The notes under the pieces: generated by a model | Databases searched by the model: none | What the model saw: only the letters and a program-made list of their open reading frames with translations | What the model was told of the DNA's origin: nothing | Shown here: positions 395 to 27,361 of the stretch, piece after piece | How positions within the stretch are numbered: position 1 is the first letter of the stretch | Layout of the letters: the number at the start of each line of letters is the position of its first letter | Assembly (NCBI RefSeq): GCF_017432245.1 | Contig: NZ_JAFRJO010000004.1 | Span: 25,072-57,071, forward strand | Length of the DNA stretch: 32,000 bases | Direction: 5' to 3' | DNA from: Methanobrevibacter sp. | Lineage (GTDB): Archaea; Methanobacteriota; Methanobacteria; Methanobacteriales; Methanobacteriaceae | Translations under genes and position numbers: made by a program

Positions 395-1612
395 ATGTTT
401 ATAGGAGAAGCTCTTATCGGAGACGGAGACGAATTAGCACACGTTGATTTACTTATTGGTGAAAAAGATGGTCCTGTAGGAAACGCTTTTGCTAATGGAT
501 TAAGCCAATTATCTGTTGGACACACCCCATTGCTCAGTGTAATCAGACCTAACTTAATTACCAAACCAGCTACCATCATTATTCCTAAAGTAACTGTTGG
601 TGACTTAGATGATGCAAGCAAAATCTTTGGACCTGCTCAAACTGCTGTAGGTAGAGCTGTAGCTGATTGTGTGGAAGAAGGAATCATTCCTAAAGACAAA
701 GTGGAAGATTGGGTAATTAATGCAAGCGTATTCATTAGCCCAGCTGCACAGGATTACAGAAAAATCTACCAATACAACTATGCAGCAACCAAACTTGCAA
801 TCAAAAGAGCATTGAAAGGTTACCCTGATATTGACAAAGTATTATACGAAAAAGACCGTGGAACCCACGCTATTATGGGATTCAAAGCAATCAAGCTTTA
901 CGAACCACCTTACTTGCAAGTTGCTCTTGACCTTGACAACATGGATGTTATGGAAAGAATCATTAAGCAACTCCCTAACAGAGAAAGAATCCTCCTTGAA
1001 GCAGGAACCCCTCTCGTTAAAAAATTCGGTGTCGGTGTAGTGGGCAAAATCAGAGAATTGGCTCCAAGCGGATTCATTATTGCTGACTTGAAAACCTTGG
1101 ACGTAGGAAGAGTTGAAGTTAAAATGGCTGCAGATGAAACTGCTGATGCAGTAGCAATTTCCGGTCTCGGAACTATTGAATCCATTGAAAAAGCTATTCA
1201 TGAATGTCAAAAACAAGGTATCTACTCCATCCTTGATATGATGAATGTAGATGACTTCACCAAAAAACTCAAGAAAATCAACAAAGAGTTCTTACCTGAC
1301 ATTGTTCTCTTACACAGAAATGTTGACTTAGAAAGTAAACTTAGAGCAGAAGGTAAAAACCTTGATGACGTAAGTGCTTGGGGTAACATTAAGGAAATTA
1401 AGAAAATCACTGGCGGTTTAGTTGCTGTAGCTGGAGGAGTAACTCCAGAAAAAGCACCTGAAGCATTTGAAAAAGGTGCAGACATCATCATCGCAGGTAG
1501 ATACATCATTGGATCTGGTGACCCAAGAAGAGCTGCAGAAGACTTCTTAGCTCAAATGCCTGTAGACCCAAACCACATGAGAGTGGTAATGGAAGATGAT
1601 GAGCAAATTTAA
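395..1612 (+). CDS. fae-hps: Bifunctional formaldehyde-activating enzyme / 3-hexulose-6-phosphate synthase (Fae-Hps fusion)
   Basis: The N-terminal ~165 aa ([26 protein letters not shown]...[12 protein letters not shown]...[16 protein letters not shown]) matches Fae. The C-terminal half (LQVALDL...AGTPL...[11 protein letters not shown]...VAGGV...IIIAGRYI) is an OMP-decarboxylase-fold HPS. A GGAGGA RBS lies 7 nt upstream of the ATG. Confidence 0.9.
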
Positions 1613-2256: not shown

Positions 2257-3006
2257 TTATTGTATTCTTAAAATAAAGTTTTTGAATTTGTCCAAGAGAT
2301 TCCTATAGTGAATGACTTTAACTTTCTCATTGTATAAATCTTCTTGAGATTTTTCGTATTTTTTGAGTAAAGCAATGTATTCCTTTTGCAACTCAACATA
2401 ATCATCAAAGGAATATGAATTTGAACTGGATGTGAACTGTTCATTGCTTAAGAATTCAGAATCAATGATAACATCATCATTTTGTGAATTTAACTTTTCG
2501 TTTAATAAATCCAAATCATCATTCAAGTCAGATATGATGAAATTTTTATCTTCCAATTGTTTTCTTAAACTGGATATGGTGTTTTGATTTTCTTCAAGCT
2601 GCTCTTTCAAACCAGAGCAGTCTTCTTTTAAAACAAGTAATCTTTTTCTGGATTCTTCCAATTGCTCTTCTCTCTTAACCAATTTTTCAGAAAGGGCTTT
2701 CAATTTAGAGGAGGTGGTCTTTAAATCTTCATCAGCAATAGTGAAATCTTTGGTCAATTTTTTATTATCTTCCAATAGCATGCTGTTAAACAATTCTAAA
2801 GCTGATTTCAATTCATCAAACTCGTTAAATTCTTCTGCTTGATCAGCTGATATAATAAAGACTTCTTCCTTATCTTCAAAGATATTGTCAGATTTAGATA
2901 CAGTGACCTGAACCTGTTCTGTCTTATAGGTCTTTTTAGTACCATCCTTTAATGTCCTATTGTAAGACCTAAAATATTTTTTAACAATACCTTTTACGAA
3001 ATCCAT
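2257..3006 (-). CDS. Coiled-coil protein of unknown function with a short N-terminal beta-rich module; paralog of 13459..14154
   Basis: 249 aa. Residues ~60-249 are heptad-rich, E/K/L-dominated (LKALSEKLVKREEQLEESRKRLLVLKEDCSGLKEQLEE...). The N-terminus (VSKSDNIFEDKEEVFIIS) aligns with LSKKDNFEGGEKVMILRIS of the 13459..14154 product. Confidence 0.65.
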   Translation of the reverse strand: MDFVKGIVKKYFRSYNRTLKDGTKKTYKTEQVQVTVSKSDNIFEDKEEVFIISADQAEEFNEFDELKSALELFNSMLLEDNKKLTKDFTIADEDLKTTSSKLKALSEKLVKREEQLEESRKRLLVLKEDCSGLKEQLEENQNTISSLRKQLEDKNFIISDLNDDLDLLNEKLNSQNDDVIIDSEFLSNEQFTSSSNSYSFDDYVELQKEYIALLKKYEKSQEDLYNEKVKVIHYRNLLDKFKNFILRIQ

Positions 3007-4032: not shown

Positions 4033-5604
4033 GTGAATATGGGAGAAGCAACTGGGAGTTCTAAAGTAGCTAAGGGAAGCGCTATTATCTTAATAGGAAA
4101 TGTCATCTTCCGTGTAGGGGGATATCTTTACCGTTTCCTTATGGCATCACTTTTAGGACCGGCAGCATATGGTATACTTGGACTCACAACTCCATTTCAA
4201 GGAATATTCCAAGTTTTATCTGCAGCAGGGCTTCCACCGGCAATAGCTAAATACGTATCAGAGTACAATGCCCTTGATGAAGAGGATCTTGCTCGCCAAA
4301 CAGTTTTCACAGCACTGAAGATAATGGTCTTTTTAGGATTCTTCTTTGGACTGATTATGGTATTTGTAGCTGCACCTATCATTACAAACTATTATCACAA
4401 GCCAGAGGCATTGTTGCCGCTTCAGGCTGTTGGTTTAATCACTCCTTTCAGTGTGATAGTCGGTGCATTTAGAGGTGCTTTCCAAGGTGTATACAAAATG
4501 GAATACATCCTTTATACACGTGCAATTGAACAGATATTCATGATTCTATTTGCAACTGCACTTGTAATTTTAGGATTATCCACCTTTGGTGCAGTATTAG
4601 GTTCTGTACTCGGTTTTGCAGCATCAGCAGTGTCTGCAGTCTATATCTTTAAAAGGTATATGGGAAAATATATCCCCCCTGCAAATCCTGACTTTAAGTT
4701 TACCTTCAGACAGGAATTGGGCCTTGCAAAAAGATTGCTTTTCTTTTCAATTCCAGTTACAGTCACTGCACTTGCTGAAATGGGTATTTACAGCATTTGT
4801 ACCTTGATTATGGGAGGATTCTTAGCTGCAAGCGCAATCGGTTACTTTACAGCAGCAGATCCTATTTCACGACTTCCTTTAATAGTCTCAAGTTCACTTG
4901 CAACTACCATATTGCCTGCAGCGTCTGAAGCATATGCTCTAAAGGATCAAAACCTACTTGAAAAATATGTCAATGCATCATATAAATACGGAATGTTCTT
5001 TGTAATTCCAATGTGTGTAGGAATAGCTATTTTTGCAAAGGAAATCATGGGGCTTGTATACTTTACAAATTCAGCTTACATGAACGGTGCAATGTCTCTT
5101 GCAATTCTTGTAATCGGTATGACATTCTATTCAATATATACAATTTCAGGAAGTATTGTCCAAGGTATTGGAAATCCAAGAATACCAATGTACCTTTTGA
5201 TATTCGGATGTATCATCACTTTAGGCCTCGGTTGGTACTTGATTCCTACTTACGGCATTGAAGGTGGAGCATTAGCTACTACAATAGCTTCATTCATAAT
5301 GATGATACCTATGTTCCTGCTCCAATTCAAGTTAACTAAAACCCATGCCCCTTATGCATTCTTAACTAAAGTCACAATAGCTTCATTGATTATGGCCTTG
5401 CCTGTATTTGTGCTTCCAAACAATAGCTATGGATTGATTGCAGGACTGATAATCTGTCCAATAATCTATATGATTGCAATTGTAGCACTTAGAACATTAT
5501 CCCATGATGATGTGGCAGGATTTAGAAAATTCACCAGAAAATTAGGTCCTTTAAGAAAATATGCCAATAAGCTATTGGATATTATAGATAAATACAGTTC
5601 TTAA
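4033..5604 (+). CDS. MOP-superfamily polysaccharide/oligosaccharide flippase (Wzx/MurJ-like polysaccharide biosynthesis protein)
   Basis: 523 aa, about 14 predicted TM helices, with an N-terminal SAIILIGNVIFRVGGYLYRFLMASLLGPAAYG pattern typical of the family. The track start is GTG 4033; ATG 4039 with GGTG 5 nt upstream is the likelier start. Confidence 0.75.
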   Translation: MNMGEATGSSKVAKGSAIILIGNVIFRVGGYLYRFLMASLLGPAAYGILGLTTPFQGIFQVLSAAGLPPAIAKYVSEYNALDEEDLARQTVFTALKIMVFLGFFFGLIMVFVAAPIITNYYHKPEALLPLQAVGLITPFSVIVGAFRGAFQGVYKMEYILYTRAIEQIFMILFATALVILGLSTFGAVLGSVLGFAASAVSAVYIFKRYMGKYIPPANPDFKFTFRQELGLAKRLLFFSIPVTVTALAEMGIYSICTLIMGGFLAASAIGYFTAADPISRLPLIVSSSLATTILPAASEAYALKDQNLLEKYVNASYKYGMFFVIPMCVGIAIFAKEIMGLVYFTNSAYMNGAMSLAILVIGMTFYSIYTISGSIVQGIGNPRIPMYLLIFGCIITLGLGWYLIPTYGIEGGALATTIASFIMMIPMFLLQFKLTKTHAPYAFLTKVTIASLIMALPVFVLPNNSYGLIAGLIICPIIYMIAIVALRTLSHDDVAGFRKFTRKLGPLRKYANKLLDIIDKYSS

Positions 5605-8039: not shown

Positions 8040-8870
8040 TTATTCTGGTTTGCTGATTAAATCAAGTTTGCAACCAACGTTACCTTCTTTCATGTGAGGG
8101 GTTCTTAATACAGTGTCGTTGGATTTTTCAATTTCTCTTGCTTCAGCTGCTAATGCAGCAGCACATGCAGCCATTTCGTGAGCAGCAGCTACTAAAGGAA
8201 TGAAGTTTTCGAATCCTTTGGTCATGAAACAACCTTTCATGTCTAAACCTGCTACAGCACCAGCCATTTCATATGCAGCAATAGCTTTTGCTTTTGCGTA
8301 AGGGTTTTGGAATTTAGCAGCTTCTACAGCTTTTTCAGCGGTTACAATGAGTTTAGGTAATTCTACTTCGTTACCTGCTTCAATAGCTTCGATTACACCG
8401 TCAATGGTTTTTTGTACTAATCTTAAAGCACCGGTTTCTGCTAATACTTTAATGATATCAGCGTTGAAAATAGCCATTTCAGTAGGGTCTAACCATTCTC
8501 TTTTTGCACCGATCATTGGGTCTGCCATAACAATAATGTAACCTAAACCTTGTTCGTCCATTTCATCTTTTTTGCCTTTACCAGGAGCGTCACCAATGAT
8601 AATAGCAGGTTTATCTATTTCAGATAATAATTCTCTTGCTCTAGCTGGACCAGGTGCTGCTGGGTTTGGGCTAATGAAAATACAGAAATCTGGGTCGAAT
8701 TGTTCAAACTTAGGTACAACGTCTTCGACTTGTTCAGGGTTCATTTTTGCTCCAGATCCAAATACTCTTACGTCGATGTTTGGTCTGTCTGCTCTTTCGT
8801 CTAATAATAAATCTAATATTGGTGAAGTACCAATATTACCACTTCTTAATATAGCGATTTTAACTACCAT
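8040..8870 (-). CDS. mtd: F420-dependent methylenetetrahydromethanopterin dehydrogenase
   Basis: MVVKIAILRSGNIGTSPILDLLLDERADR...PNPAAPGP...IIGDAPG...LGYIIV...EKSNDTVLRTPH closely parallels characterised Mtd. The ATG at 8870-8868 is preceded by GTGAT. The 43 extra codons in the track ORF (to 8999) are low-complexity read-through of AT-rich leader. Confidence 0.9.
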   Translation of the reverse strand: MVVKIAILRSGNIGTSPILDLLLDERADRPNIDVRVFGSGAKMNPEQVEDVVPKFEQFDPDFCIFISPNPAAPGPARARELLSEIDKPAIIIGDAPGKGKKDEMDEQGLGYIIVMADPMIGAKREWLDPTEMAIFNADIIKVLAETGALRLVQKTIDGVIEAIEAGNEVELPKLIVTAEKAVEAAKFQNPYAKAKAIAAYEMAGAVAGLDMKGCFMTKGFENFIPLVAAAHEMAACAAALAAEAREIEKSNDTVLRTPHMKEGNVGCKLDLISKPE

Positions 8871-9094
8871 AATATCACAATAATATTTATAGTATTTGCT
8901 TATTATAAAGTTAATGTAAAAAAACAAATAAAAAACTTTATATATTAGAATAATTTTTTTTAAAATACAAGTAAAATTAGTTATAAAAATAAAGAACATA
9001 GAGAAAGTATTTTGGAAAAATAAGGAAAATTAAATCTAATCTAAAAAAATTTAGAATCTTAAATAAATTATCAAGATTTTAAAAAAAAATATAA

Positions 9095-10382: not shown

Positions 10383-11504
10383 TTATCTGTATACTTTACG
10401 GCTATTCCAAATTTGCTTAGTGGATTTAAATCCACTTCTTTTTAGTGATTTTTCATCAAAGTCATTTATCAAATCCACTAATCTATCAATAGCTATTTCA
10501 CTATTTTTTACAAGACAAGATTCCTTCTGTTCAGGAAGATTTTCAAAAGCTTCAGGGATTTCTTCTATTTTTACGATTGGTATATTAAGTTCCTTTGCCA
10601 AATCCACACTGCCATGAGTTTTATGAAATCCTTCTATTTTCAATGATGGGATGTTGAATACACCTGCTTCAATAGTCATTCCCATACCTGCAGCATAGAT
10701 TAGGTGAGATGCAGCATTCATAAAGCTTAACATATCAACATATTGAGGCAAAACCTTGATGTTTGGTGATAATACCAATTCATTAACCATATCCCTATCA
10801 AACCTGTAAGGTGCAATCAATGCCTTAAGATTAAGCTCTTCTACAGATCTTATCAATGGCTCAATATCATCATCTTTCAAATCTCCTCCAAGAACTGCAA
10901 GGACAAATTCCTTCATTCCATATTCACCATAGATTTCATCCTTATCGATTAAATTATCTTGTTTAATGTAGTTATCAACATATTTTGCCATAGGATAACC
11001 ATCGATATTTACAACATTTTTCAGATTATAGTTTTTCTCCAGATACTCCTTATAGATGTTTGAAGGAACAGTTACTAGATTAGCTTGGGAAATGACTTCA
11101 ATCGGATTATAAATATCCTGCTCTATATGCAAAACAGGAATATTCAGGATATTCGCAGCTACAATAGCTTTTCTTACATCCCCTGCATTTCCTGCAGTAA
11201 TCAACAAATCAATATCCTTTCCTTTAAGGGCATTCAATGACTTTAAGATATCCTTTGAAATAAGGTATGCCAATTTTCCAGTAGAATTTTTTTTACCCCT
11301 TCTGCCTTCTCCAATAGAATAAGTTTCATTGCAATAAGGTTCTAGGAAATCCCTTGATGATTCCCCATGATAAAGGCCAATTATTTTATTGATCTTAAAG
11401 CTTAATTTGCCTTCAGCTTCCCTCTCCTTTAGTTTTTCTATGATTGGAATGATTGTTTTAGATGGAGTGATTTCTCCTGCAATAGCTATATTTTTAGATT
11501 TCAT
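10383..11504 (-). CDS. GT-B-fold glycosyltransferase-like protein (MurG/GT28- or DUF354-like), uncharacterised
   Basis: Two Rossmann-like halves: DLLITAGNAGDVRKAIVAANILNIPVLHIEQD in the N-domain, and VLAVLGG...HLIYAAGMGMTIEAGVFNIPSL in the C-domain, like the MurG RAGA-x-T-x-E-G-x-P motif. ATG at 11504 with a GGGGTG RBS; it overlaps the upstream gene's stop by 11 nt. The track ORF begins at GTG 11513. Confidence 0.55.
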   Translation of the reverse strand: MKSKNIAIAGEITPSKTIIPIIEKLKEREAEGKLSFKINKIIGLYHGESSRDFLEPYCNETYSIGEGRRGKKNSTGKLAYLISKDILKSLNALKGKDIDLLITAGNAGDVRKAIVAANILNIPVLHIEQDIYNPIEVISQANLVTVPSNIYKEYLEKNYNLKNVVNIDGYPMAKYVDNYIKQDNLIDKDEIYGEYGMKEFVLAVLGGDLKDDDIEPLIRSVEELNLKALIAPYRFDRDMVNELVLSPNIKVLPQYVDMLSFMNAASHLIYAAGMGMTIEAGVFNIPSLKIEGFHKTHGSVDLAKELNIPIVKIEEIPEAFENLPEQKESCLVKNSEIAIDRLVDLINDFDEKSLKRSGFKSTKQIWNSRKVYR

Positions 11505-12639
11505 GATTAGCACCCCTTAGGAAACGGATGATAAGCAAAATGCCGATTAAATAGAATATCCAAACCACAACATCAGTTGGGCCTGTTTCTATCCAGATGA
11601 TTGTTTGTGCAAGTAAAATTCCATAAAATGCTGTAAAGATGCTTTTACTTTGATTTTGTATGCTATGTAATGTCTTTAAGATAAGGCCGATTAAAAACAT
11701 TTGAATAAGCATTCCTACAATACCGAAATCAAGCAATGCTGGGCCGAAAATTGTAGAGGTTATTGAATGAACCCTTCCAATTGTTGCTTGTCCTACTAGG
11801 ACTCTTGCATCTGAATGTGTAAAGAATCCTGTCAATGTTGTGTAGAATAGATTTCCCATTGTAGTGAATTGATTTTCAATTGCCTTGGAAAGTACATTCA
11901 ATGTAAATGCAGCCCTATAAGATACCAATTCAATTGGATTCAATGACCAGTGCTGCCAGCTGATAGCTTGAACTGCAATGAATCCAACAGCTAAAAGCAC
12001 TGCTGCAATAGCCAAAATAGCTAAAATTATGTATTTCACATCAACATCCCTTGTATAATACAAGGTAATGAGGGCGGATAGCATGATTGCAATAGGAGTG
12101 GTCCTATATCCTGTAAGAGCAAATAAGACTAAACCAACGATTAGCAATAGGTAATGGGATTTTCTATTGTATTTTGCAAGCAAAATATTGATGGACGGCA
12201 GGAAAATTATATAGGATATAAGCCAAATTTTAGTTGCCGCTTTTGCCTTTAATGTAGCAGAAAATAGGGGAATTCCACCTAATAAAGCTATGTTTATTAT
12301 CTGCAAAAGAATGCCGAATGAAACAAGTCCCACTAAAATCAATTCATTTTTTGAATATGAATCAGATAATGATAATTTCTCAGGGATTAGAGTTCTTTTA
12401 GTAGTGGAATCTCCATCGATTTTAAAATTCTTATTCAAGAGGTAGTTAGATAAGAAAACGCCTAAAATAAAGAATAAAAGCCCTAAACCGATATAAAGAT
12501 ACAAATCTAAATTAGGGGAAGGCAATTCACGATAAAAATACCACATAGGCATAGCTATGATTAAAAATAGGATTACCATAACTACAAGAATCAACGGATG
12601 AAATAGATCATAATTTCCATTTTTAAAATTAAAGTTCAT
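11494..12639 (-). CDS. Polytopic membrane protein, oligosaccharide repeat-unit polymerase (Wzy)-like
   Basis: 381 aa, about 10-11 TM helices, with a GGIPLFSATLKAKAATK loop and a TGYRTTP motif reminiscent of archaeal/bacterial Wzy-type polymerases. Translationally coupled to the downstream GT-B gene. Confidence 0.5.
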   Translation of the reverse strand: MNFNFKNGNYDLFHPLILVVMVILFLIIAMPMWYFYRELPSPNLDLYLYIGLGLLFFILGVFLSNYLLNKNFKIDGDSTTKRTLIPEKLSLSDSYSKNELILVGLVSFGILLQIINIALLGGIPLFSATLKAKAATKIWLISYIIFLPSINILLAKYNRKSHYLLLIVGLVLFALTGYRTTPIAIMLSALITLYYTRDVDVKYIILAILAIAAVLLAVGFIAVQAISWQHWSLNPIELVSYRAAFTLNVLSKAIENQFTTMGNLFYTTLTGFFTHSDARVLVGQATIGRVHSITSTIFGPALLDFGIVGMLIQMFLIGLILKTLHSIQNQSKSIFTAFYGILLAQTIIWIETGPTDVVVWIFYLIGILLIIRFLRGANHEI

Positions 12640-13458: not shown

Positions 13459-14154
13459 CTAATCTTCTTGTTTTTCAGCTTCCAAGACATAAGTTTCCTT
13501 TGGCTTGCTGTCTATTTGCAAGTCAGTATCATCAGGTTGCCTGTTTAAAAGACGATCGATGAAGCTTCTGTTTTTATATCTGTCAATTAAAAGCCTATCT
13601 GCAGTTAACAATTGATCTTTATAAGCGATTTCCTTAAGGCTGTCCTGAAGTTGCTGGTTGACATTATGTAATTCCTTGTCCTTTTCTAGAACCAATTCAT
13701 CATGTCTTTTTCTCTCTTCAAGGAGATTTTCTTCTGCCTTTTGCTTAGCTAAATCTGACTTTGCCCTTTCAAGCCTAATCTCTTCATTAGCCTGCTTGAT
13801 AAGCTGGTCTTTTTCATCAATGATTTCATAGCATTTCGCAATAGCAGATTTGTTTTCTTCGACAAGGTCCATGATTTCCTTATTCTTTTCTGAAATCTCC
13901 TGATTCCTTTGTTCCATGATTTCATTTATGGAAGAATCCGCTTCACTGCGTGATTGCTTTAAATCTGAAATGGTATTTTTATTATCGTCAATTTTAGATT
14001 TAAGATCATCGATCTCATTTAGATAAGATTCATATTCACTTATCCTAAGAATCATTACCTTCTCTCCACCTTCAAAATTATCCTTTTTTGAAAGATCAAT
14101 ACGATAAGTGAAACTGTTTCCTCTCTTATATTGTTTGACTTCCTTTTCTAACAT
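13459..14154 (-). CDS. Coiled-coil protein of unknown function with a short N-terminal beta-rich (swapped-hairpin/AbrB-like?) module; paralog of 2257..3006
   Basis: 231 aa. The N-terminus is FTYRIDLSKKDNFEGGEKVMILRISEYE, followed by ~150 aa of uninterrupted heptad-like E/K/L/Q sequence. It is flanked by 819- and 922-bp non-coding regions. Confidence 0.65.
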   Translation of the reverse strand: MLEKEVKQYKRGNSFTYRIDLSKKDNFEGGEKVMILRISEYESYLNEIDDLKSKIDDNKNTISDLKQSRSEADSSINEIMEQRNQEISEKNKEIMDLVEENKSAIAKCYEIIDEKDQLIKQANEEIRLERAKSDLAKQKAEENLLEERKRHDELVLEKDKELHNVNQQLQDSLKEIAYKDQLLTADRLLIDRYKNRSFIDRLLNRQPDDTDLQIDSKPKETYVLEAEKQED

Positions 14155-19570: not shown

Positions 19571-20056
19571 ACTTTCTTCTTTTTTTAATCTTTTACTTAT
19601 TTTGCTTTTTCTAATTTTCTATTTTTTATAATTCTTTAATTTATTATATTTTTTAAAAATTTTCAGATATAATTTTAATAATGTATAAATTAACTTTTTT
19701 TTAATTTGATTTTATTTCTTTTTTTATTAATTTTAACTAAAAAATCCTATAATAATTATATTTTGTATATTTTTTAGAATAAAAACTGAATAATTGGCTA
19801 TATTTAAAAATAATACACCATATTTCTTTAAACGCCTATTAAACTATTTTAAAAATGTTCAAAAAATACCAAATTAATTAAAAAAAATGAAAATTTGTTT
19901 GATAATATTAAACAAATAAATAAAAAATTTTATATGCCTTAAACGAGAAATATTTAAAGCACCCACGCAAAAAATTATATTTAACTTAGTTAAGTGGTTA
20001 GGATAATATAAAAAAAATTATCAAAAAATGAATTTGTTTGAAAAAACGGTGATAAT

Positions 20057-20884
20057 ATGAAGAATAAATTTTTTGGAATAATGACAATAATGTTATTATT
20101 AGTAATAATATCAACATTGACAGTTCCAACCGTATTTGCAACAGAGGCAACGGTAGTTGCAAATGCAAGTAGCGGTGACTGTTATAATGTTACTTTTGAA
20201 ACAGAGGGAGATAATTATTCGTCCTATTGTGTGCAGAAAGGTATGACTGTTCCTGAAGTTGACACTGTATATAATGTTGAAGAAAATATAACATCAACTG
20301 AGGTAATAACAGATGTACAAGCTGATAAAGTCAAAATATTCGCTATAAAGTATAGAAATGAAGATTTGACTCATTTTACTGTTAATCCTAAAACAGGAGC
20401 CCTAGGTAAAGAGCTTGATGATGTGACATCAAGACAGTTAATTATTTGGTATCTTATTGGACAAGGAGAAGAAGGATGGTTTAAAACTAATCATGTTAAC
20501 ATAAGCATCATAGAAGATATTAATAAATCATATGCTGATGGATTGAAATATCCGGATAAGGGAACTATTCCTATAAACAACACAACTCAGTTTAATTATA
20601 CTTTCAAGTATTTCAGCAGCAAAGACGGTAGTCTTCAAGATTTCATAGGATGGTTCTTCGTTGAATCTGATATCCCGCCTCAAAATAATGAGACAAACAA
20701 TACAACCAATGAAACACCTCCTCCAAAGAATGAAACAGAACCTCCAATCAATGTGGCTCCAGCAGAGATTCAAAAAACATATACCAAAAAAGTACCAATG
20801 ACTAATGCTGCAGGAAATCCTTTGGGACTATTGGCATTCGCTGGATTAGGTTTAGGACTAACTCTTAGAAGGAGAAGAAACTAG
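20057..20884 (+). CDS. Secreted, sequon-rich surface (adhesin-like) protein with TED-like Cys/Gln motifs and a C-terminal tripartite sorting signal
   Basis: Signal peptide MKNKFFGIMTIMLLLVIISTLTVPTVFA. YCVQ with Cys58 (nt 20228-20230) and RQLIIW with Gln127 (nt 20435-20437). At least a dozen N-x-S/T sequons. A P/N/T-rich stalk PPQNNETNNTTNETPPPKNETEPP. C-terminus VPMTN-AAGNPLGLLAFAGLGLGLTL-RRRRN. Confidence 0.8.
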   Translation: MKNKFFGIMTIMLLLVIISTLTVPTVFATEATVVANASSGDCYNVTFETEGDNYSSYCVQKGMTVPEVDTVYNVEENITSTEVITDVQADKVKIFAIKYRNEDLTHFTVNPKTGALGKELDDVTSRQLIIWYLIGQGEEGWFKTNHVNISIIEDINKSYADGLKYPDKGTIPINNTTQFNYTFKYFSSKDGSLQDFIGWFFVESDIPPQNNETNNTTNETPPPKNETEPPINVAPAEIQKTYTKKVPMTNAAGNPLGLLAFAGLGLGLTLRRRRN

Positions 20885-20978
20885 ATCAATAACTTGAATT
20901 GATATGAAAGCAAGAACATTATAAAAAAAATCTGAAAATATTTAGAAGATTTTATGAAAAATTTCTTTTAATCTTAAC

Positions 20979-26716: not shown

Positions 26717-27361
26717 ATGGCTAAAAAGGAAAAGAATACAGGATTAGGAAGAGGATTGGATTCATTGATTCCAAAAATAGAAGAGAAAGATTTTGAAGAA
26801 GGCATCAGTCTTGAGGATATGTTAAGGGAATCCGAAGAGGAATCAAAAACATTTGAAGAACTGGTTGAAGAAGTTGAAGAGGAATTCGATGGTGAAGATG
26901 AACTTCAAGTTTTAGAAAAATCAGCAGATGTTGAAGAGGAAAAAGTAGAAGAAAGTTCAGAGTACACAAATGTTTTCTTCAATGATGATGAGAAACCACC
27001 AGAAAATGGTGCAAAAGATGAAGAAAAAATCAGCTCAGAAAAAAGTGTAGAAATAATTGATTCTACAGTTAATTTAAATGAAGAAAGTGATGCAACTAGT
27101 GAAATAATTAAAGCTTCAGATGATTTAAAAGAAGTTGGTAGTCTTCTTTCAGAAAAAGAGGAGAAACTGATAGATGAAGTCATCGAAACTGTGGAAAATA
27201 ATCCAAGAATCACTTTATGGTCTGCAAGATCAGCGGCTGTACTAAGGTACTTGAGAAAAACCGAACCTGAATTCAGCATAAGCAGTGAAGCATCAAACTT
27301 GATAGATGCTGCAATAGCTGAAAAGTATCCTGAAATCTGGACATTGTTTAATCATTTGTAA
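26717..27361 (+). CDS. Acidic protein with ParB-like N-terminal peptide and C-terminal ribbon-helix-helix-like module (candidate ParA partner; not a canonical ParB)
   Basis: aa 1-20 are MAKKEKNTGLGRGLDSLIPK, matching the conserved ParB/Spo0J N-terminal GLGRGL(D/E/S)ALL ParA-interaction motif. aa ~21-160 are very acidic low-complexity sequence with no ParB/Srx GERRxRA box and no HTH. aa 161-207 are NNPRITLWSARSAAVLRYLRKTEPEFSISSEASNLIDAAIAEKY, a beta-helix-turn-helix pattern like ParG/omega/CopG. Confidence 0.75.
   Translation: MAKKEKNTGLGRGLDSLIPKIEEKDFEEGISLEDMLRESEEESKTFEELVEEVEEEFDGEDELQVLEKSADVEEEKVEESSEYTNVFFNDDEKPPENGAKDEEKISSEKSVEIIDSTVNLNEESDATSEIIKASDDLKEVGSLLSEKEEKLIDEVIETVENNPRITLWSARSAAVLRYLRKTEPEFSISSEASNLIDAAIAEKYPEIWTLFNHL

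Follow-up and report, generated by a model that had tools for sequence, protein, structure and literature searches.

Thioester domains (TEDs) have been described as exclusive to Gram-positive bacteria (PMC4450167), and the locus described here raises the question whether an archaeon of the genus Methanobrevibacter encodes one as well. The window, a stretch of 32,000 nucleotides from Methanobrevibacter sp. (RefSeq assembly GCF_017432245.1, contig NZ_JAFRJO010000004.1, positions 25,072 to 57,071 of the forward strand), contains an open reading frame (ORF) at 20057..20884 (+), which begins with ATG and encodes a protein of 275 amino acids. A sequence-only reading of this ORF had proposed a small TED-like surface protein with a thioester between Cys58 and Gln127. 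We propose, with a probability of roughly 0.55, that the window protein is a diverged, class-I-like archaeal TED, which would form its thioester between Cys58 and Gln194, be displayed on a short glycosylated stalk with a membrane or sortase-type anchor, and be reactive towards amines. The general idea of a TED-like surface protein is supported by several independent lines, each of them weak by itself, while the predicted fold and the family thresholds speak against it. Observed are the motifs, their conservation, a weak profile similarity in a consistent register, and the architecture.

No paper linking a thioester domain with Methanobrevibacter was found in the searchable literature, and the titles and abstracts of the literature naming both thioester domains and archaea hold no archaeal TED. 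The literature checked on the adhesin-like proteins (ALPs) of Methanobrevibacter makes no mention of thioesters, isopeptides or sortase.

Three TED motifs and the predicted bonding glutamine

TEDs are defined by three motifs, [YFL]CΦζ, TQxxΦW and ΦQζΦΦ (PMC4450167, PMC6194298). The first is located on a β-strand and holds the bonding cysteine. The second, common in TEDs but not universal, is located on helix α2, where its Gln and Trp hydrogen-bond the backbone of the thioester cysteine while being unbonded themselves and dispensable for bond formation; the third, a weak motif on the last β-strand, holds the bonding glutamine (PMC4450167, PMC6194298). The bonding Cys and Gln are the sole residues that are universally conserved in TEDs (PMC6194298).

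The window protein displays a counterpart of each motif. YCVQ (residues 57-60, 20225..20236 (+), in SSYCVQKG) corresponds to [YFL]CΦζ and contains Cys58 (TGT, 20228-20230), the predicted thioester cysteine, which is located on a predicted β-strand (domain residues 24-31). RQLIIW (residues 126-131, 20432..20449 (+), within TSRQLIIWYLIG) corresponds to TQxxΦW with the T replaced by R; it contains Gln127 (CAG, 20435-20437) and is located on a predicted helix (domain residues 94-105). LQDFI (residues 193-197, 20633..20647 (+)) corresponds to ΦQζΦΦ, and its Gln194 (CAA, 20636-20638) stands where the last predicted β-strand begins. When the structural model described below is compared with the literature, each motif falls in its prescribed secondary-structure element, i.e. 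a β-strand, the central helix and the last β-strand. When the mature domain was shuffled 200,000 times, the ordered three-motif match arose at a frequency of 2e-5.

The ORF and both motifs quoted in the sequence-only reading, with Cys58 and Gln127, were found exactly where it had placed them. The bond that it drew between these two residues is not supported, as the Gln of TQxxΦW is unbonded in TEDs (PMC4450167, PMC6194298): that reading had merged TQxxΦW with the motif of the bonding Gln, and had overlooked the third motif, LQDFI. Gln194 is the predicted bond-forming glutamine and partner of Cys58, while Gln127 and Trp131 would, by analogy with known TEDs, adjoin the thioester without being bond partners. 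The spacing between Cys58 and Gln194 is 136 residues, compared with 129 to 153 residues in class I TEDs (CpTIE 129, SfbI 152, PnTIE 153). In class II TEDs, a β-sandwich insert of ~75 residues supplies the bonding Gln via a slipknot (PMC6194298). The archaeal domain, unlike these, has only ~7 residues between its last helix and the C-terminal strands, which leaves no room for such an insert, so that the domain would be class-I-like.

A tiny family comprised of two subfamilies

Homologs were searched for among 5.8 billion proteins (word-seeded search), among 1.84 billion representatives (exhaustive HMMER scan), and in genome and metagenome DNA. The exhaustive scan resulted in five matches, the genome DNA scan in one locus and the metagenome DNA scan in three loci. 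All searches pooled, the family is comprised of ~14 protein clusters, all of them unnamed, which fall into two subfamilies. The members of the window's subfamily (P0001-P0010) are 264 to 313 amino acids long and 53-100% identical, while for the second subfamily (P0012-P0016 and P0039) the identity over the domain amounts to 20-27%, based on an alignment of 12 sequences from both subfamilies (A4).

Few residues are conserved across the two subfamilies, and Cys58, Gln127, Trp131 and Gln194 are among them. Cys58 is nearly invariant, Gln127 and Trp131 are kept in every homolog covering that position, and the motif around Gln194 reads LQDF, YQDF, LQML, YQNL or FQML. The whole window protein contains only two cysteines, Cys42 and Cys58; the former is absent from the second subfamily, and the domain of P0012 and P0039 possesses a single Cys, so no intradomain disulfide is possible there. 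A proline positioned eight residues after the motif cysteine (C-x7-P) is common to the archaeal family and the class II TEDs of the TIE-pLS20-type plasmid conjugation adhesins, the corresponding residue in SaTIE being Ala; C-x7-P may be a further trait of one subgroup of TEDs.

Profile comparison with bacterial TEDs

Four relatives of the window protein showed similarity to the Pfam TED family (PF08341), two from its own subfamily (P0006 with E = 0.012, residues 67-150 on profile positions 3-78 of 102; P0004 with E = 0.95, residues 57-160 on positions 3-98) and two from the second (P0014 with E = 0.015, residues 135-237, and P0015 with E = 0.041, residues 59-161, both on positions 1-97). The register of these matches is constant, with the Y-C of the motif at profile positions 3-4, and TED is the sole Pfam family matched by both subfamilies.

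Alignment A4 was compared by hhalign with a bacterial TED profile (A7) composed of the pLS20-type plasmid conjugation adhesins annotated as 'thioester domain-containing' and of the fragments of SaTIE (6FX6) and BaTIE (6FWV); both fragments are crystal sequences retrieved from the PDB by the plasmid TED profile. The alignment covered 69 columns (score 25.1, P = 0.0025, probability 12%), placing Cys58 opposite the thioester Cys and SRQLIIWYLIG opposite the TQxxΦW helix. The class II SaTIE-TED alone (PDB 6FX6) gave the best profile alignment, in the same register, running from the Cys motif to ATQMLIWELLG as compared with SRQLIIWYLIG (score 27.5, P = 6e-4, probability 28%). None of the 600 column-shuffled controls reached 25.1 or 27.5 (mean ~11, maximum ~24, Gumbel-tail P ~1.4e-4), a lenient null that destroys the periodicity of local structure and possibly overstates the significance. 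The BaTIE fragment alone yielded an alignment restricted to the TQ motif (P = 0.25), and the complete alignment of class II plasmid TEDs one restricted to the Cys region (P = 0.0018). A tblastn search of plasmids with the domain resulted in two insignificant matches and no TED genes.

Predicted structure of the domain

The AlphaFold2 (AF2) model of the full-length protein, built on 10 sequences, was poor, with a predicted local distance difference test score (pLDDT) of 43. The model of the domain only, built on 12 sequences, reached a pLDDT of 73 and a predicted template modeling score (pTM) of 0.73; three of the five models from the domain runs had a pLDDT of 34-41, and the N-terminal β region one of 48-69. 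In domain numbering, the N-terminal part of the model is comprised of strands β 4-8, β 16-21 and β 24-31 (with the Cys at 30) and of helix α 58-70. These are followed by a β-hairpin (78-92) and by helices α 94-105 (with Gln99 and Trp103), α 113-117 and α 121-132, and the C-terminal part contains strands β 140-144, β 149-160 and β 167-177, with Gln166 at the start of the last one. The order of the elements agrees with that published for class I TEDs, i.e. strands A-D, three core helices, and strands P and Q.

A cysteine protease of the papain, transglutaminase or NlpC/P60 type was considered and rejected: no family match was found, Cys58 is located on a predicted β-strand and not at the N-terminus of a helix, and the second subfamily does not keep His106, the candidate histidine.

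Protein layout and C-terminal anchor

The layout described in the sequence-only reading, with a signal peptide, a TED-like domain, a sequon-rich stalk and a C-terminal anchor, was recovered, with the qualification that the LPXTG motif of the anchor is degenerate. By inspection, residues 1-28 (20057..20140 (+)) look like a signal peptide composed of MKNK, a hydrophobic core and VFA, with probable cleavage before T29; a signal-peptide-like N-terminal region is conserved in all full-length homologs. The TED-like globular domain (residues 29-208, 20141..20680 (+)) is based on the AF2 model, the hhalign comparison with TED profiles, and the sub-threshold Pfam TED matches of the relatives. It is followed by a short Pro/Asn/Thr-rich stalk (residues 209-246, 20681..20794 (+)), which contains five N-X-S/T sequons at residues 211-227 (14 in the whole protein), varies in length among homologs, and displays a low pLDDT in the full-length model.

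The C-terminus reads PMTNAAG-NPLGLLAFAGLGLGLTL-RRRRN. PMTNAAG (residues 247-253, 20795..20815 (+)) is, by alignment with the relatives, a degenerate counterpart of LPXTG; the hydrophobic segment, the RRRRN tail and the stop codon (20816..20884 (+)) would represent a membrane anchor or the tail of a sorting signal. The LPXTG pentapeptide itself is missing from the window protein, where PMTNAAG is followed by GNPL, the hydrophobic segment and RRRRN, and is present in the relatives P0007 (LPRTG) and P0039 (LPATG). The C-terminus of P0007, comprised of ALPRTG, a hydrophobic helix and RRDLRK, is a canonical LPXTG signal. At one and the same aligned place, LPATG-NPL is found in P0039, LPRTG in P0007, MPATG-NPL in P0006, and MTNAAG-NPL in the window protein, with most members, including the window protein, conforming to (M/I)TN(A)(A/V)G-NPL. 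On the strength of this series from LPATG over LPRTG and MPATG to MTNAAG, the anchor of the window protein seems to derive from an LPXTG signal by degeneration, the sortase motif apparently decaying within one small clade.

The NCBIfam LPXTG_anchor family matched neither the window protein nor P0039 or P0007, and P0006 scored 8.3 bits compared with a cutoff of 15.9. In NCBIfam the C-terminus of the window protein (residues 250-274) was matched only as a generic tripartite sorting signal (MYXO-CTERM or GC_trans_RRR-like), MYXO-CTERM itself matching residues 252-274 with 20.7 bits compared with a cutoff of 20. MYXO-CTERM proper (TIGR03901), which has a Gly-Cys motif and belongs to the Myxococcota, was rejected, as the C-terminal region contains no Cys and the host is an archaeon; the match reflects the generic shape of a hydrophobic stretch with an Arg tail.

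M. ruminantium and M. smithii are reported to encode one sortase each, together with one or two LPxTG proteins each (mru2147 in M. ruminantium, msm0173 and msm0411 in M. smithii; PMC2812497). Similar to the ALPs and these rare LPxTG proteins, the window protein is a secreted surface protein of Methanobrevibacter, a genus for which a sortase has been reported; ALPs differ from it in their typically very large size, their many repeats and their Big/ABD or β-helix domains.

A relative with the layout of a TIE adhesin

The relative P0039 (L015:1341-6242, ENA sample ERZ27303370), of which P0012 is a fragment, is 1633 amino acids long. It is composed of a signal peptide, an acidic linker, the TED-like domain (~85-265), 11 DUF11 repeats, a Pro-rich linker and NELPATGNPLVMVLLALIALGAAGLRRKD, and its C-terminus displays LPATG, a hydrophobic helix and RRKD. 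The repeats match DUF11 (PF01345) with E = 6e-119, and DUF7507 as well. DUF11 (CLIPPER), for which a crystal structure is available, and DUF7507 (CLIPPER_2) are CnaA-like domains with intramolecular isopeptide bonds, and the domains that accompany CLIPPER stalks in archaea are mostly unrecognized (PMC12617251).

P0039 is located on an archaeal contig, which has a G+C content of ~31% and on which its neighbors include a signal peptidase of the archaeal type (88 bits, cutoff 51.85), ArgRS and CbiC. A 274-amino-acid gene upstream of P0039 was considered as a possible paralog and rejected, having by eye no similarity to the archaeal family. Judged by its sequence, P0039 displays, in an archaeon, the layout of a bacterial thioester-isopeptide (TIE) adhesin, the TED-like domain occupying the place of the warhead. 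With this domain, an isopeptide-type stalk and LPXTG encoded together on an archaeal contig, an archaeon possesses the exact layout of TIE proteins and fibrillar adhesins. The window protein, unlike these, has no repeat stalk (only ~38 Pro/Asn/Thr-rich residues) and a degenerate LPXTG motif, and the wall of its host would be pseudomurein instead of murein.

When compared with the class I TEDs (SfbI-TED, CpTIE-TED, PnTIE-TED and Cpa; PF08341), the window protein has the same motif order, the same predicted element context and a Cys-Gln spacing within their range; it likewise lacks the class II β-sandwich insert, and its N-terminal domain behind a signal peptide is followed by a stalk and a C-terminal anchor. 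It differs from them in being archaeal and known here from sequence, in its shorter domain (~180 residues) with an extra predicted β-hairpin between helices 1 and 2, in RQ replacing TQ, in sub-gathering profile scores, and in a three-dimensional model that retrieves no TED.

Weighing the alternatives

A number of results weigh against a TED. The window protein has no Pfam match at E <= 10 and no TED or TQXA-type NCBIfam match, and neither the protein alone nor the family profile matched any sequence of the PDB (phmmer and hmmsearch, with E <= 10 for the profile). The scores of its relatives against Pfam TED (10.4-16.4 bits) are all under the gathering score of 22, and DUF5824 and Cdc6_C, matched within the window's subfamily only, score equally weakly. 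The probabilities obtained by hhalign are only 12-28%, the window protein as a single sequence is not significantly similar to the TED profile (score 14.2, P = 0.22), and the first position of TQxxΦW is occupied by R instead of T. When the domain model was searched by Foldseek against the PDB, no TED was among the 50 matches listed, and these matches, with a best E of 0.04 and TM-scores of 0.13-0.27, were not significant for any fold; the domain model likewise had no TED and no significant match in BFVD, and neither had the poor full-length model in the PDB. Finally, Cys42, which is conserved in the window's subfamily, immediately precedes the strand that, by prediction, pairs with the Cys58 strand, offering a disulfide as an alternative there.

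What the sequence-only reading had named as speaking against itself came true in part. Pfam TED was silent for the window protein, though matched by relatives below threshold and in a consistent register; the TED-like fold found no backing, as the AF2 model retrieves no TED among the Foldseek matches listed. The missing sequence match weighs little, because true TEDs are diverged to 5-30% mutual identity and fail to find each other: with the bona fide TEDs TIE-pLS20 and the SaTIE fragment as queries, phmmer found no other TED in the PDB. The Foldseek result is tempered by the 12-sequence alignment, by the three of five models with low pLDDT and by the low pLDDT of the N-terminal β part. It is mainly this fold test, leaning negative, that holds down our confidence in the window protein as a TED.

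The alternative that survives best, though we hold it to be unlikely, is a lineage-specific surface glycoprotein of methanogens with an unrelated and possibly new fold, in which the TED-like motifs would have arisen by chance or convergence, Cys58 would form a disulfide with Cys42 in the window's subfamily or be a free thiol, and binding would be non-covalent. Such a protein would be consistent with the lack of above-threshold TED matches in Pfam, NCBIfam and PDB sequences, with the lack of any TED or other significant Foldseek match for a model of pTM 0.73, with the equally noise-level matches to other Pfam families in the window's subfamily, and with the two conserved cysteines in or beside neighboring predicted strands; a family with five matches in 1.84 billion representatives also fits a fast-evolving orphan. 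It is opposed by the rarity of the ordered three-motif match in shuffled sequences, by the four TED-critical residues, which unlike Cys42 are kept across subfamilies, by TED being the sole Pfam family to match both subfamilies, and in one register, by an hhalign score above all 600 shuffles, and by the TIE-type architecture of P0039 with its LPATG. Moreover, a strict anaerobe would not be expected to form disulfides outside the cell.

Considerably less probable is a true TED relative that has lost, or never formed, the thioester and serves as an ordinary non-covalent surface binding module. A sequence diverged past the family thresholds, the R at the first position of TQxxΦW and the decay of the sorting signal from LPATG to PMTNAAG, which suggests relaxed constraint, would be in line with this, and according to the literature the fold is not determined structurally by the thioester. 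That all full-length members of the two subfamilies keep Cys58 and Gln194 would be unexpected if the chemistry had been lost. A thioester between Cys58 and Gln127 of RQLIIW is highly improbable, for although both residues are conserved (Gln127 is invariant) and the motif Gln adjoins the thioester Cys in TED structures, this Gln is unbonded in all characterized TEDs, its mutation leaves the thioester in place, and Gln194, separate and itself conserved, has the spacing, the motif and the strand context that suit a bonding Gln.

Gene and genomic setting

The ORF is preceded by an AT-rich intergenic region of 486 nucleotides, in which a Shine-Dalgarno-like site (GGTGAT, 20048..20053 (+)) is positioned 3 nucleotides before the ATG. 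The commonest public gene call (P0001, 264 amino acids) begins at Met12 (20090) and cuts off the charged n-region of the signal peptide. The 275-amino-acid start is favored because of the GGTGAT site and because the homologs have their MKKK start there as well; cluster members with a length of 275 amino acids exist.

The neighboring genes in the window represent methanogen housekeeping functions, including IGPD, CobQ, a LeuA-like synthase, a radical-SAM protein, a DUF63 membrane protein and a PHP phosphoesterase. The host is confirmed as a methanogen by two hallmark genes, one for a formaldehyde-activating enzyme (Fae) fused to an Hps-type domain of the orotidine monophosphate decarboxylase/HUMPS family (395-1612 (+)), and one for F420-dependent methylene-tetrahydromethanopterin dehydrogenase (Mtd; 8040-8999 (-)). 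A gut or rumen habitat is plausible for this Methanobrevibacter host. The 32-kb window contains neither a sortase gene nor a further adhesin gene. The same gene neighborhood was found in several metagenome contigs and in a different, uncultured Methanobrevibacter metagenome-assembled genome (L005), whose copy of the protein is 72% identical; the gene can therefore be considered to reside stably in the chromosome within a small clade of Methanobrevibacter.

Directly 3' of the stop codon, an AT-rich inverted repeat of 6 bp (20885-20903; ATCAAT, a loop of 7 nucleotides, ATTGAT) is followed by an A/T-rich run. It may mark the end of the transcript; a scan for σ70 promoters and intrinsic terminators, whose design is not meant for archaea, did not flag it. 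Two genes related to cell-envelope glycans are located in the window: one for a MurJ/Wzx-type polysaccharide flippase (4033-5604 (+)), and one for an O-antigen-polymerase-like membrane protein (PF01901, within 10383-12639 (-)), which overlaps by 20 nucleotides with a 376-amino-acid ORF having a GTG start and no Pfam match. Three further ORFs of 214 to 249 amino acids, at 2257-3006 (-), 13459-14154 (-) and 26717-27361 (+), have no Pfam match at E <= 1e-5.

Proposed mechanism and significance

For the window protein as a class-I-like archaeal TED, we infer the fold, the bond, the glycosylation, the processing by sortase and the target as follows. The protein would be exported via Sec and cleaved after VFA28. 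On folding, the thiol of Cys58 on the third β-strand would attack the side-chain amide of Gln194 on the last β-strand, with loss of ammonia and formation of a buried thioester, against which Gln127 and Trp131 of the central helix would pack. The short Pro/Asn/Thr stalk would be N-glycosylated, and the C-terminal signal, with its degenerate LPXTG-like motif, hydrophobic helix and Arg tail, would retain the protein in the membrane, or allow its transfer to pseudomurein if the sortase of the genus still accepts PMTNAAG. A primary amine, typically that of a Lys side chain on the target surface, would then attack the thioester, and the resulting intermolecular isopeptide bond would constitute covalent adhesion. 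Candidate targets are partner microbes, material of the host and the wall of the cell itself; for the 275-amino-acid form, which has no repeat stalk, the target could alternatively be the lysines of its own pseudomurein.

More tentatively, and at somewhat short of even odds, pseudomurein-walled methanogens may possess a full covalent adhesion toolkit in the style of Gram-positive bacteria, comprised of thioester warheads (the window protein and the N-terminus of P0039), CLIPPER stalks stabilized by isopeptide bonds, and LPXTG anchoring of the sortase type. This toolkit would probably have been acquired from gut Bacillota, and would lock the cells onto hydrogen-producing partners or host material.

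If the thioester chemistry is absent, the window protein would be a small orphan surface glycoprotein. If the proposed reading is true, it would represent the first internal-thioester adhesin outside the Bacteria, and would extend covalent adhesion by internal thioesters, together with sortase-type display, to the Archaea. The domain would also offer a small scaffold of 180 residues for protein-ligation tools, and Cys58 with its thioester a specific target for anti-methanogen vaccines or inhibitors. For Methanobrevibacter itself, it would provide a concrete molecular basis for the attachment to syntrophic partners or to the host.

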